Notes under the pieces: model-generated
The model's database searches: none
What the model was told of the DNA's origin: nothing
Seen by the model: only the letters and a program-made list of their open reading frames with translations
NCBI GenBank assembly: GCA_018649885.1
Contig: JABIHA010000085.1
Coordinates: forward strand, 162,744-193,977
From: Bacteriovoracaceae bacterium
Lineage (GTDB): Bacteria; Bdellovibrionota; Bacteriovoracia; Bacteriovoracales; Bacteriovoracaceae
Direction of reading: 5' to 3'
Length of the DNA: 31,234 nt
Made by a program: the position numbers and the translations under genes
In this document: positions 1 through 27,087 of the stretch, one piece after another
Numbering within the stretch: position 1 is the stretch's first letter
Layout of the letters: each line of letters begins with the position of its first letter

Positions 1-1218
1 TTACAGCAAGGCCTTGGCAGAATTACCTATGCATCCGCTAGTGAAGGACAGATAAAAGATACAGATCTCGATGGACTCTCTGATCGTGAGGAAAGAGAAG
101 TTTATTTTACTAATCCTTCTGTCTCCGATAGTGATGGTGATGGTTTTAGTGATAGTGAAGAAGTTCTCCCTACTGGGAAAAATGGGGTATCTCTAGTGGA
201 TTTAGGCGCCAATCCCAATGTACGAGATATTTTTATCGAAATTGATTATATGGCCAGTCCCAAAGGCCTAGAAAATTCTGAAACTGACACAACAAAGTCT
301 TTTAAAGGGCTTCAAATCTTTGAGGAATCACTAAGAAAAGTTCAATTGGCGTTTGCTGCTTACGATCCCGAAATTAATGGAGGAAAAAAAACACCATTTA
401 AAATTCATTTTGATATAGGCGATCTCTTTGACAAATCAAGTGGTCTAAACCCCGAAAAATTTGATCTTGGGGGAGGACAGGAGATTCCTTTTCAGTCAAA
501 ACTTCGTATTGCATACCCAGGAAGCTCACTTTCTCACAATGATCTTAAACAACTTTATTTTGATCCTAGCAGACAGGGGATTTTTCACTACTTGATTTGG
601 GGATACGAGTTTGAGGAGCACTATAACCCTAAAACAGGGTATAGAGTCACCTCTGGTATTCACGGATTGGCCGAAATCCCAGGCAATGATTTTGCCATTT
701 GCATTGGTTGGGTCTCTGTAGGTAATAGCGTGTATTCTCACAATATGCAGGCAATGGAAATTATGCACGAACTAGGTCATAACCTAGGTCTCAGTCACGA
801 CGGAAGTAGAAAAGAGTATTGGGGGAGAAAGCCAAACTATCCATCCATTATGAGCTATCAATATACTTATTACGATTCAGATATTGAGGGAAACGGTTGG
901 CGCTATTATTCATCTAGTTCGCCTTATAGGAAAAAGCTTGTTGAGATTGGCAAGGGGTCACCGATGAACCTCCATTCTCCTGATTATCTACCGTACTACT
1001 CTTATGGTCTGAATATTGGTCTCGATGAAGATAATATGAGTGAGAAAATGGGTTGGAGTGGGATATTCATCGATTATAATAAAAATGGTGTTATTGACGA
1101 TGCTAAGTTTCAAAAAGACTTCAACTCTGATGGGAATAAATGGTCAGATCACGTGGACTTCAATGACTGGGCCAATCTCAAACTCGATTTTGGTGGTCAT
1201 CCCTATTACAATGACTGA
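1..1218 (+). CDS. Zinc metalloprotease (metzincin-type) with Ca-binding DxDxDG repeats; 5'-truncated by the window edge
   Basis: Frame is open from base 1 (LQQGLGRITY...). It carries DTDLDGLSDREE and DSDGDGFSDSEE repeats, the HExxHxxGxxH motif HELGHNLGLSH, a Met-turn SIMSY, and C-terminal DYNKNG/DFNSDG motifs. Confidence 0.85.
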   Translation, partial: LQQGLGRITYASASEGQIKDTDLDGLSDREEREVYFTNPSVSDSDGDGFSDSEEVLPTGKNGVSLVDLGANPNVRDIFIEIDYMASPKGLENSETDTTKSFKGLQIFEESLRKVQLAFAAYDPEINGGKKTPFKIHFDIGDLFDKSSGLNPEKFDLGGGQEIPFQSKLRIAYPGSSLSHNDLKQLYFDPSRQGIFHYLIWGYEFEEHYNPKTGYRVTSGIHGLAEIPGNDFAICIGWVSVGNSVYSHNMQAMEIMHELGHNLGLSHDGSRKEYWGRKPNYPSIMSYQYTYYDSDIEGNGWRYYSSSSPYRKKLVEIGKGSPMNLHSPDYLPYYSYGLNIGLDEDNMSEKMGWSGIFIDYNKNGVIDDAKFQKDFNSDGNKWSDHVDFNDWANLKLDFGGHPYYND

Positions 1219-1894
1219 GCTTTGGTATCCACTCAGGAAGTGAGTGGATCAATTTTGGAATGATGTCTTTGGCCCCCGTGTGATAGTCATCTGTATTTTT
1301 TTGATAGGACTGTGGTTTTTCTAAACTAACTGTATCACTAACACCTCTAATAATGAGACATTTCACATTGTTTTTTTGGCAGACTCTTGCAATGGAGCCT
1401 GACTCCCAGTCTACAACTTTAGCACCGTACTTGGATTTGAGGTGGGGTATATCGCTCTGATCTAAATCTCTATCCGCAGATAGCATCGTCTCTCTTGTGA
1501 CTGGAAGTGGGCATGTCTCAAGCCAGCATAAATCAATATCAGTTGAATACTCTCTTATGAACTGATCGGGATCGGACATTTTTTCATACATGTCATAGAT
1601 AATGGTTTTTTCCACTAAAATGAGATCCCCTCTACTGACTTCTCCGGCAATTCCACCACATGTGCCTAGATTGAAAACTATGCTTGGGCCCCATTTTGAA
1701 ATTAAATATTGAGCCGAGGCAGCTGCATCCACTTTTCCACAGCCCCCGCGTAGAAAAACAAGGTCACCATGATAAAAATATTCACCATAAGGACACAAGC
1801 CAATCTTTTCTGGGGAGAGCGTTGACTTTGCTGCCCTCCATTCAGAATTTGCAGAAATAATAACACCAACTTGAATTTTCTTATTTTCATTCAT
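1178..1894 (-). CDS. 5'-methylthioadenosine/S-adenosylhomocysteine nucleosidase family protein
   Basis: PNP/MTAN motifs GCGKVDAA, NLGTCGG, DWESGSIA and RGVSD. Confidence 0.8.
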   Translation of the reverse strand: MNENKKIQVGVIISANSEWRAAKSTLSPEKIGLCPYGEYFYHGDLVFLRGGCGKVDAAASAQYLISKWGPSIVFNLGTCGGIAGEVSRGDLILVEKTIIYDMYEKMSDPDQFIREYSTDIDLCWLETCPLPVTRETMLSADRDLDQSDIPHLKSKYGAKVVDWESGSIARVCQKNNVKCLIIRGVSDTVSLEKPQSYQKNTDDYHTGAKDIIPKLIHSLPEWIPKLSHCNRDDHQNRV

Positions 1895-24212: not shown

Positions 24213-25241
24213 ATGAAGAACTCTTTTAAGGTTCTCTTTCGATTTCTCGGCGCACTGATTTTAGGATCCTGGACCTTTGCCAGCTACGCGGTGTCGACAA
24301 ATGTTTATATAGATTCAAGACTTGATGCCACAAAATACAATTTTGAGCAAAAGAGAACTGGAACTCACGATTACTCTGCTTTTGAAGTAAATAAGGCCAG
24401 ATTGGGGGTGAAGGGTGAAGTGGTCAAAGGCTACACCTATCATTTGAGATACGCTTTTGAAAATACAGCTGATAATCATCTGGTAGATAATGCTAGCAAT
24501 GCCCTTGAGAAAGCCTATGTTCAGGGTTGGTTTGACGATCACTGGTCGATGCAATTTGGTAAGGATTACCTTAAGTGGGGAACCAGAGAGCAATATCTAA
24601 ATGAAACAGATGTTTATACATATTCATGGGCCTCCACTAATGTTTCTCATTATGGGACGGGAGTGAATCTTCACTACAGGAATGCTGGGCAAAAATACTA
24701 TATTTCAATTAATAATTCTGATGACGCCAATTCCACTCCAGCAAAACAAAAGAATTTTCATTACATGATCTCTTGGTATGGGAATATCATTCCAGAGGTT
24801 ATCTATCCTCACTTAAGCTATAGCTTTAGACCTATAGCGGGCAGAAAGCATCCAGATCACTATTTTTTCTTTGGATCAAATTTTTTATTGGGTGATTTAA
24901 ATATTGAACTCGATGGAGGATTTCTCAAAAAGGATAGATTTAAATATATGTCGGGCATGGCAAAAATTCAGTTCAATCGACACGGGGAAGTGAGACCATT
25001 TGTTAAGGCCATTTTTGACAAGAAAGTTTTGCACTCTGAGTCTCACAACAAGAGAACTGCAGGGGATGTGGGCTTTGAGTTTTTTCCGTTTGAAGGACAA
25101 GATATCCGCTACCACATTGTTTACTCAGGAGGCTACTTTGCCAACGATGCTGTGAAAGACCAAAACAATGAAGATTACTATCAATCGTCAATTCGGCTGG
25201 GGTTAAAGGCGGGCTTTGACGTCATTAAAGGTGTGTTCTAA
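24213..25241 (+). CDS. Outer-membrane beta-barrel porin (OprO/OprP-like)
   Basis: Signal peptide, aromatic-rich alternating strands, FEVNKARLGVKG, LEKAYV...MQFGK and a C-terminal Phe. Confidence 0.7.
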   Translation: MKNSFKVLFRFLGALILGSWTFASYAVSTNVYIDSRLDATKYNFEQKRTGTHDYSAFEVNKARLGVKGEVVKGYTYHLRYAFENTADNHLVDNASNALEKAYVQGWFDDHWSMQFGKDYLKWGTREQYLNETDVYTYSWASTNVSHYGTGVNLHYRNAGQKYYISINNSDDANSTPAKQKNFHYMISWYGNIIPEVIYPHLSYSFRPIAGRKHPDHYFFFGSNFLLGDLNIELDGGFLKKDRFKYMSGMAKIQFNRHGEVRPFVKAIFDKKVLHSESHNKRTAGDVGFEFFPFEGQDIRYHIVYSGGYFANDAVKDQNNEDYYQSSIRLGLKAGFDVIKGVF

Positions 25242-25825
25242 AAACTATTTTGTAGATAAAAATCATAAAGGGCCTTGGAGTAATCCAGGGCCTTTTTTTT
25301 GATTAGTGAGATGGTTGTAAATTCAAAAGCATAATCACTGATAATTTTATAGCTTCCATAAGAGAGGGCGTTCTCAGCAGCAAAGTTGGCAATAGTCCAA
25401 AACTCACGATCGACAATTTTTGCTTTGACGGAAAGCTCACCAGCTAGTTCTTTGTCATGAATCCTGCTGTGACTGGTGACAAGCTCTATTCCATTTTTTC
25501 CGTTAGTCGTTTCCAGAGGTTGTTCAGAGGACCAGTCACCTTCCCATTTGTGGCAGCTGACGACCTTAAAAGTCTCGCCTGGATGGAAGTCTTGGGAGAG
25601 GGAGCCAGCAAATCCCAGGTTTAAGATATGATTAATTTTATAGTAAGAATTTTCGAAAAATGCTTCTAGTGCCATCTGTGTTTTTTCCATTCCCTCGCCA
25701 GTAATCAAGATGATTGTATCTCCGGATGTATGGTATTTAATCCCGGCCTCTTTGTGCAAAGTGTAGGGGGCTGAGGATAGAAAGGCCGTGGCCTCTTTTT
25801 TGTGGGCAAATGTTAGAAGTTCCAA
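25238..25825 (-). CDS. Nucleoside phosphorylase-like (PNP/MTAN fold) protein
   Basis: Motifs ITGEG, NLGFAGSL, VDRE and KIISD; TTG start with GGAG RBS. Confidence 0.7.
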   Translation of the reverse strand: MELLTFAHKKEATAFLSSAPYTLHKEAGIKYHTSGDTIILITGEGMEKTQMALEAFFENSYYKINHILNLGFAGSLSQDFHPGETFKVVSCHKWEGDWSSEQPLETTNGKNGIELVTSHSRIHDKELAGELSVKAKIVDREFWTIANFAAENALSYGSYKIISDYAFEFTTISLIKKKALDYSKALYDFYLQNSF

Positions 25826-25891
25826 TTTTTCTCCATGAGTATCGTTACCGTTTTGGCATAATCGGGATCTTACGGCCAGGGCAGGGGCTTA

Positions 25892-26071
25892 TACCAACTG
25901 CAAAAATTTATTACGGGATCTTGGATGCCACTTTCACCAATCTTACATCTTTGTTCAGTCGAAAAATCCTCGATGTGCCTTTGGGCACACCTGCGGTTTT
26001 TCTTCCTCACAAAAATGTAATCTCGGCAAAACTGACATCCAATCTCCCGAAATTAATTATTGCAATTGGTA
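25892..26071. mobile_element. 180-bp imperfect palindromic element (MITE-like or structured RNA) with TTA flanking direct repeats
   Basis: Arms 25891-25980 and 25983-26072 align without gaps (65/90 complementary by hand count). Ends are TACCAA...TTGGTA, with TTA at 25889-25891 and 26072-26074. Confidence 0.65.
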
Positions 26072-26124
26072 TTACAAAGGAGTGAAGACCTTGGTAGGAT
26101 GATTCAAATTTTGCGAGGTGTCGG

Positions 26125-27087
26125 ATGAGGACTTTTAATTTTTTAGACCATGGGTTTCCCCTGTCTACAATTTGTTTTGGAGGGGCTTCTATAAGCGGTG
26201 AGGGCAAGGGTTACGGCTTTGGACCCATCACTGAGGATGAATCAATTAGGCTTTTAAAAAAGGCCTTCGAAGCGGGAATTAATTTTTTCGATACGGCTCC
26301 TATTTACGGTTTTGGGAGCTCTGAAATTAGAATGGGCAAGGCCTTTAAAGATATAAGAGAAAAAGTATTTTTAATTTCTAAGTGTGGCATTGATTGGCAT
26401 TCGAATACGAGAGTCAATATGACTAATGATCCTGCCATCTGTGAGAAGATGTTGGGTCAAAGTCTTGAAAGACTTCAAACAGATTACATCGATCTATACA
26501 TGATTCATTGGCCAGATCAAAATGTTGATATAAGAGATTCCCTTAAAGTATTAGTAGATGCTAAGAAGGCCGGAAAAATAAAGTATATAGGACTTTGCAA
26601 TACAAATGTGGACGAATTAGAAAAGGCCCGAGAGGTATGCAAAATTGATATGGTCCAAAGTGAATACAACCTTTTCGCTGATTCAGTAAGGGATCAACTC
26701 TTTCCGTATTTAGAACAGCACCATATACCTTTTATGGGTTGGGGAACTTTTCAAAAAGGTATCCTGACAAAACGAGTCGATGCTTCAAGGAAATTTGATT
26801 CCACTGATTGCAGATCTAGTGCTCCTTGGTGGAAGGATATGAATAAGGCTCCCATGTATCAAGCAATGGAAGAAATTAATCCATTGTTAGATCAAAAAGG
26901 TGTGGACGGAGTTTCTCTTGCACTTTCTTTTTCTCTGGGACATCCAGCAATAAGAGCAGCATTAGTGGGAATGAGAAATGAAAAGCAACTTGAAAGTACT
27001 CTTCGTGCTCTTGAAAATTTGGCCCCCCTTGAATTAGTGAATAGATCTCATGAAATTGCGACAAAGCATTTAATGGAGGTAAGATGA
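26125..27087 (+). CDS. Aldo/keto reductase
   Basis: Catalytic tetrad context FFDTAPIYG, ISKCG and SLERLQTDYIDLYMIHWPD; GKIKYIGLCN. Confidence 0.93.
   Translation: MRTFNFLDHGFPLSTICFGGASISGEGKGYGFGPITEDESIRLLKKAFEAGINFFDTAPIYGFGSSEIRMGKAFKDIREKVFLISKCGIDWHSNTRVNMTNDPAICEKMLGQSLERLQTDYIDLYMIHWPDQNVDIRDSLKVLVDAKKAGKIKYIGLCNTNVDELEKAREVCKIDMVQSEYNLFADSVRDQLFPYLEQHHIPFMGWGTFQKGILTKRVDASRKFDSTDCRSSAPWWKDMNKAPMYQAMEEINPLLDQKGVDGVSLALSFSLGHPAIRAALVGMRNEKQLESTLRALENLAPLELVNRSHEIATKHLMEVR

Follow-up and report, generated by a model that had tools for sequence, protein, structure and literature searches.

The window, that is, the whole 31,234-nucleotide stretch of DNA analysed here, contains between two divergent genes a fold-back sequence whose two strands differ in how well they fold, and this raises the question of what the sequence is and what its one-sided fold may be for. 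The initial annotation, made from the letters alone, had read it as a non-autonomous mobile element or a noncoding RNA selected to fold as a single-stranded rod, possibly in the 5′ leader of the neighbouring PNP-like gene.

A 180-bp hairpin between divergent genes

The unit runs from TACCAA to TTGGTA at positions 25892-26071 and has TTA at either side, as had been annotated, and the neighbouring genes also proved to be those named at the outset: a PNP-like gene on the minus strand and an aldo-keto reductase gene on the plus strand, after which come the GT2 and then the HDAC genes (Table 1). Between the two ends, 21 of the 25 terminal bases are complementary, and with 180 bp and no transposase gene the unit has the size and content of a MITE. 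An Rfam 15 search of window positions 25500-26500 returned 0 matches to E 10, and a promoter scan found a single weak outward site (9/12) in the right arm of the element. Note that a 91-codon open reading frame on the plus strand (25810-26085) extends across the element; it is likely incidental, and its 91-aa product had no Pfam or NCBIfam match.

Table 1. Features of the fold-back element and its neighbours, in window coordinates
Feature	Position	Strand	Basis
Left putative 3-bp target duplication TTA (TNA type)	25889..25891		sequence; TNA duplication in related IS630
Right putative 3-bp target duplication TTA	26072..26074		sequence; TNA duplication in related IS630
180-bp MITE, one of three full copies	25892..26071		BLAST of own genome; copies 172-175/180 identical
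Left terminal inverted repeat, IS630-type	25892..25916	+	19/25 identical to both ends of complete IS630 G245/L115
Right terminal inverted repeat, IS630-type	26047..26071	-	19/25 vs L115 IS630 ends; 19/25 vs end adjoining IS630 remnant G278/L113
Conserved rod body, ~130 nt, predicted best fold on minus strand	25917..26046	-	folds; full-length alignment with GGG-ended MITEs; covariation
Left-arm sites of four purine-purine mismatches, 11 bp apart	25909..25942	-	mirror alignment
A·A mismatch	25909/26054	-	first of four at 11-bp spacing
GA/GA mismatch	25919-20/26043-44	-	second of four at 11-bp spacing
G·G mismatch	25931/26032	-	third of four at 11-bp spacing
GA/GA mismatch	25941-42/26021-22	-	fourth of four at 11-bp spacing
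Third tandem GA/GA loop	25955..25956, partner 26007-26008	-	fold and mirror alignment
Apical core: A-tract, bulged A, GCA/GA 3x2 internal loop, 8-bp stem, 4-nt loop 25980-25983	25962..26002	-	fold; motif recurs in other genomes
Host neighbour, nucleosidase/phosphorylase-family (PNP-like) gene, outside element	25238..25825	-	Pfam PF01048 E 9e-7; NCBIfam nucleosidase below cut-off
Host neighbour, aldo-keto reductase gene, outside element	26125..27087	+	Pfam PF00248 E 1e-64

The 180-bp fold-back is a genuine hairpin that lies far outside chance. The predicted folding energy is -99.2 kcal/mol for the minus strand (z -17.1) and -63.2 kcal/mol for the plus strand (z -8.8), and 0 of 200 shuffles reached either value. 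When 25891-26072 is aligned with its own mirror image without gaps, 65 columns are Watson-Crick, in agreement with the original count, but the folded core is not strictly gap-free as had been described, since a 3x2 loop and a bulged A are located near the tip.

The gap between the strands amounts to 36 kcal/mol with RNA parameters versus 13 with DNA parameters, and in three nulls that kept the mismatch positions a gap of 36 kcal/mol was reached in 0/300, 2/300, and 1/400 draws. An excess of G-U pairs on the minus strand had been annotated. The counts hold, with eight mismatches that become G-U on the minus strand and three on the plus strand (one of the three being a loop column), but taken alone this difference is not significant (p 0.23), and among relatives the bias is inconsistent and G·A is the robust signal. 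In the fold of the minus strand all three tandem GA/GA loops were confirmed, including the two AGAU/AGAU loops that are 22 bp apart. Measured from the core loop, the purine mismatches of the window element fall at 26, 37, 48, and 59 bp.

The unit is a multi-copy MITE

BLAST of the source genome (G000), a Bdellovibrionota genome of 5.4 Mb that is 92% complete, found three full copies of the unit that are 172-175/180 identical (96-97%), together with one 78-bp deletion derivative, one 132-bp subfamily, and four half-ends. All copies are intergenic, with neighbours unrelated to one another, and two of the three full copies have TTA/TTA flanks. By its copy number, its terminal inverted repeats, and the apparent 3-bp duplication at its flanks, the 180-bp unit is a multi-copy non-autonomous MITE, which bears out the annotation of a mobile element. 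A leader-RNA role for the PNP-like gene is not supported, because the element recurs at unrelated loci and in other orientations, and for the source genome it is an ordinary mobile repeat between divergent genes.

The 78-bp derivative (C20:160716-160793), seen in several sequencing runs, has lost 102 bp; the deletion lies between 7-bp direct repeats, which stem from the symmetric AGAT/AGAT motifs. No empty site for the window copy was found across eight sequencing runs (X2-X8, X10), whose contigs showed the other copies and the 78-bp derivative and nothing else, and in G414 divergence was too great for an orthologous site to be read. A DNA search of 60 relatives yielded a single weak 42-bp match, which is a core-bearing element in G040, and viral scans for the element gave chance matches or none.

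IS630-type ends and a putative outside transposase

The end pattern of the element occurs in 46 of 401 genomes of the phylum, mostly once, but G118, G263, and G278 have 9 to 32 occurrences. End-motif matches numbered 92 in G118 and 88 in G413, where control matches numbered 0 and 7, and the families of the G118/G413 type are 100-136 bp long, with interiors different from that of the window element. Of three end matches found genome-wide, two (L013, L014) are isolated ends without a partner.

In G278, an IS630 transposase remnant follows immediately after a matching end. When this remnant was used as a query, relatives were found in 8 of 401 genomes and in 183 plasmid records. A complete IS630 from G245 (L115) encodes 349 aa with an NCBIfam IS630 score of 219 (cut-off 100), and its ends are identical to those of the window element at 19/25 positions and to those of the 132-bp subfamily at 27/36. 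Among the annotated plasmid IS630s, four of the five examined have TACCA ends and the fifth starts TACCG. The interior of the window element is unrelated to the IS630 body, as the covariance model R1 had no significant match in L115 or L126-L128. Judging from these ends, the window element is very likely mobilised by an IS630 transposase. The IS5/PIF-Harbinger type that had been suggested for it is not supported: the transposases behind these ends are IS630, and no IS5 element with such ends was met among them. In the source genome itself no transposase bounded by the element ends was found: two protein queries and PF13358 detected no IS630 transposase in the 92% complete assembly, and a paired-end scan revealed no autonomous partner.

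The related insertion sequences also bear on the flanking repeats. We examined 16 copies of an Aeromonas-type IS630, one of which has no right end in its locus, and all 15 complete copies have identical TGA, TCA, TAA, or TTA flanks; an empty plasmid site has a single TGA. This IS630 relative has a TNA rather than a TA duplication, and the TTA/TTA flanks of the window element fit such a 3-bp duplication by an enzyme of the IS630 group. For the window element itself TNA duplication can only be inferred, since the Aeromonas-type ends match its ends at only 10-14/25 positions and the closer G245 IS630 copy has TTA/TAA flanks. TNA is the target of nematode Tc4 and Tc5. Given duplication of TNA by the IS630 relative, the elements are able to land on TAA and TGA stop codons. 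In the G413 family (L234-L273 and others), 23 ends of 38 copies lie on gene stop codons, as a TNA target predicts. The 101- and 129-bp forms of this family differ by one internal hairpin.

Other arrangements of these ends were observed as well. In G278 (L112:26-1189), the IS630 remnant is truncated beside a DDE_Tnp_1 transposase fragment on the opposite strand. In G157, inward ends enclose 4.3 kb that hold Fic-like and ATPase-like open reading frames by eye (L106:1031-5327), and inward-facing ends surround 0.96 kb (L107:1054-2013). In such long end-bounded stretches of G157 no transposase open reading frame was recognised, and they may be cargo units bounded by MITE ends.

A rod body under different ends

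A pattern search with the apical motif returned 34 metagenome loci, of which 22 were aligned with the window after duplicates and edge hits had been dropped. The core loci are mostly 120-185-bp fold-backs whose ends differ, and a covariance model located the core in 14 of 150 other Bdellovibrionota genomes. Of the 31 rods with the core that were tested, ten combine GG ends and a TWA duplication with a length of 177-180 bp, and an end of one such GG-type rod matches an ISAzo13 element at 18/20 positions; this insertion sequence is 1321 bp long and is flanked by TAA on both sides. The window element aligns over its full length with 12 chosen rods of the GG-ended type. As judged by alignment, a conserved body is common to the IS630-ended window MITE and to MITEs with ISAzo13-type ends. 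A plasmid partner search with three other end types found one partner for L221 and none for L198 or L186, and DDE_Tnp_4 was found in 0 of 5 genomes.

R1 had no match to IS630 bodies, to the G413, G278, and G118 families, or to the Escherichia coli rpsB-tsf repeat, and an Rfam search over the rods of 20 relatives, like that of the window, gave no family at the gathering score. In the 123-bp G278 copies L081, L085, and L100 the GCA/GA loop sides are swapped, with GA on the 5′ arm, and therefore the motif exists in both polarities. The core is not required for spread, because it is lacking from the family in G118 (near-perfect hairpins in about 40 copies, with a strand gap mostly <6 kcal/mol), from the G263 family (a weak fold of -18 kcal/mol), and from the 78- and 132-bp G000 copies.

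At L175, a core-bearing rod (~1440-1603) lies between an RT-5 RNA (1621-1724, minus strand) and a UG26 reverse-transcriptase (RT) gene (198-1409, minus strand), and its better-folding strand is opposite to the RT sense strand. We rejected an origin of the rod from a retron or another RT-linked system, a question for which PMC9226505 and PMC5737381 were consulted, since an RT is near the core at 1 of 61 core loci tested. For the same reason the L175 rod is treated as an insertion, probably of a MITE. No RT was found in G000 with the L175-type RT as query, and UG26 was found in 0/401 and 0/251 genomes, in searches in which no positive control matched either.

Probable selection on the fold of one strand

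In the alignment of the window element with the 12 GG-ended rods, two-sided changes affect 41 of 61 pairs, a number that 0 of 500 shuffles reached, and 93% of alignment cells pair, compared with 36-46% in slid controls. For the 23 rods of the pattern set, orientation was fixed by the searched motif and the motif itself was excluded from the strand test; for the arms outside it the core strand gave the better fold in 21 of 23 rods, whether RNA or DNA parameters were used. On that strand A·G mismatches outnumber C·T (128 vs 29), as do tandem GA mismatches their counterparts (15 vs 1) and G·T mismatches A·C (118 vs 50). Among 18 of 21 model hits viewed, the core strand was better in 18/18, with a model trained on that strand; A·G again exceeded C·T (143 vs 10), but G·T and A·C were even (42 vs 43). 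G·A is the steady strand signal, and the G·U bias is inconsistent. Note that p values overstate here because the relatives share ancestry.

Across 27 representatives of 41 elements, the distances of purine mismatches from the core loop are concentrated at 26-28 and 37-38 bp, roughly a helical turn apart. Helical periods of 10.5 and 11 fit equally well (R 0.56 vs 0.57) and do not discriminate between DNA and RNA.

Watson-Crick covariation can arise without function by arm-to-arm conversion, of which mirror-image flanks are a sign. Flanks of the MITEs also decay; they are identical in 14 of 38 cases in G413 and in 4 of 12 in G118, and mirror-image in 7 of 12 in G118. The G118 set (L047-L076), a 134-bp family that shares the end type of the window element, numbers ~40 copies, each with its own two-sided changes, and conversion there extends into the target duplication, as the mirror-image flanks attest. 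We nevertheless consider selection on a one-strand fold likely, and on this point the initial annotation is upheld by a strand gap that beats the nulls, by the strand bias of relatives, and by covariation.

The orientation of copies was also compared with that of their host genes. Where both neighbouring genes run in one direction, the better-folding strand is sense in 7 copies and antisense in 13 (p 0.26, not significant). In G413, which has its own, different hairpin tip, one defined strand folds better in 30 of 38 copies, and the stop-codon copies place the weaker strand in read-through mRNA in 17 cases versus 6 (p 0.035). Host mRNA thus shows no enrichment of the better strand, and a host-mRNA role is not favoured.

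Possible roles of the folded strand

A MITE that is likely moved by an outside IS630 transposase, and whose interior aids its own movement by folding as DNA, is an explanation to which we give roughly an even chance. At 180 bp the two ends would be hard to loop together. If the interior were extruded as a G·A-stabilised hairpin on one strand, the duplex ends could be brought side by side for the transposase, and a poorly folding partner strand would limit the damage of a full cruciform. One body might then be useful to different transposases and hence be fitted with different ends. We rate this DNA hypothesis as a whole a shade below even, and the same estimate applies to a DNA-level role in movement once the element is accepted as a MITE. 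The exact 11-bp spacing in the window element, the conserved G-U columns, and the larger RNA gap lean toward RNA.

A bolder form of the proposal, in which the ~130-nt strand-specific rod with G·A defects once per helical turn would be a portable mobility module fitted to IS630, ISAzo13, and further ends, seems to us rather doubtful. If true, a portable rod would let a transposase handle very short elements via a folded single strand and would account for the frequency of whole-length hairpins among bacterial MITEs.

The foremost alternative is an IS630-type MITE with a body selected as RNA, whose minus-strand transcript would be the rod and whose G·A defects, once per A-form turn, would tune cleavage by RNase III or another enzyme, or which would bind a protein. 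The larger strand gap with RNA parameters agrees with this, as do the purine mismatches at exact 11-bp spacing, four times in the window, the G·U excess of the pattern set, and the altered mRNA decay reported for ERIC and Correia RNAs in PMC2229807 and PMC10969869. However, host mRNA is not enriched for the better strand, the covariance-model set has no G·U excess, and no Rfam family matches. Moreover, RNA selection alone would not spread an element without reverse transcription, and an RT is near so few of the core loci. We regard an RNA role as possible but unlikely.

It is also conceivable that the mismatches are a tolerance device against a cruciform or a strong mRNA hairpin, such that copies survive best with the weak strand exposed. 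The orientation bias of the G413 stop-codon copies would agree with this, and the 102-bp deletion between 7-bp repeats within the hairpin shows instability. Yet any mismatch would serve that purpose, whereas the G·A type and positions are conserved among the 27 representatives, and G118 maintains near-perfect hairpins in about 40 copies; we hold tolerance to be improbable. Least probable, although the core-bearing rods are all homologous and hence not independent and core-less families spread well, is an asymmetry merely inherited from one ancestor and shaped by mutation bias, with no present function. Across families of <62% arm identity the G·A positions have remained unpaired next to paired positions that covary, A·G mismatches require transversions that deamination does not give, and conversion would erase G·A mismatches, as in G118.

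The element touches an old question, namely what makes bacterial MITEs such as ERIC, RUP, and Correia form long hairpins and how such MITEs move; according to PMC2229807, transposase mobilisation of bacterial MITEs was without experimental support at that time. The material described above provides a testable pair: the IS630 of G245 (L115), which is intact and whose ends match, and a MITE with swappable, conserved unpaired G·A positions.

Relation to known systems

The E. coli K-12 rpsB-tsf intergenic repeat (L169:159-292), which we take to be ERIC, folds at -66.3 versus -51.0 between its strands and has tandem GA by the tip, and thus has the same kind of strand asymmetry as the window element in an unrelated-looking hairpin. 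No homology to ERIC was detected with R1 in L169, which represents a single E. coli repeat. The GNA/GA loop may resemble the bubble of the parvovirus terminal hairpin.

Ordinary MITEs had been described in the initial annotation as having terminal repeats only. This is not supported for bacterial families: the transcripts of all those listed in PMC2229807 form long stem-loops, and such stem-loops are general among bacterial MITEs according to accounts in PMC2229807, PMC10969869, PMC3184786, PMC3049150, PMC2759123, and PMC4853749. The ERIC/IRU elements (MITEEc1, MITEPlu5, MITEYpe1; CCC-type IS630), as described in PMC6267812, are likewise gene-less, intergenic, and 120-180 bp long, and are likewise whole-length stem-loops with ends that resemble an IS630 subgroup; the ERIC-like MITEPlu5 is tied there to an IS630 subtype with TA duplication. 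ERIC has a 2-bp TA duplication and CCC near its ends, whereas the window element has TACCA ends and the related IS630 duplicates TNA, and with these ends and this duplication we did not assign it to ERIC/IRU. For ERIC and Correia transcripts, roles in cleavage or protein binding have been proposed and an effect on mRNA decay reported (PMC2229807, PMC10969869).

RUP of Streptococcus pneumoniae and Correia/NEMIS of Neisseria are small hairpin MITEs too, and RUP has been proposed to be moved by IS630-Spn1 (PMC2229807, PMC3049150). As described there they have a TA duplication, unlike the window element, and the likeness noted here is one of description. In bcr1, a ~155-bp mobile repeat of the Bacillus cereus group, compensatory changes preserve the fold, as they do here, but its fold is cruciform-like with two stems and its direct repeats are 5 bp long (PMC3184786).

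In the literature within our scope, from which subscription papers such as those on the original ERIC and the Shewanella MITE were mostly absent, we found no strand-specific G·A body shared between end types; in the same scope, with ISfinder outside it, no TNA-duplicating IS630 was found, although absence is in neither case thereby proven. The kind of MITE that carries a long hairpin is already known, and the shared strand-specific body is the part for which no literature precedent was found.

Two groups of insertion sequences are also close to the window element. TACCA-ended IS630s (G245/L115 and plasmids L126-L128, L130), one relative of which bears the RefSeq label ISAli2, resemble it in the terminal 25 bp and the TNA flanks, but the window element is without their transposase gene and has an unrelated interior. 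MITEs with the end type of the ISAzo13-family element (L283, Pfam PF07592) carry the same rod body at the same length, whereas ISAzo13-family ends are absent from the window element, whose ends are of the IS630 type.
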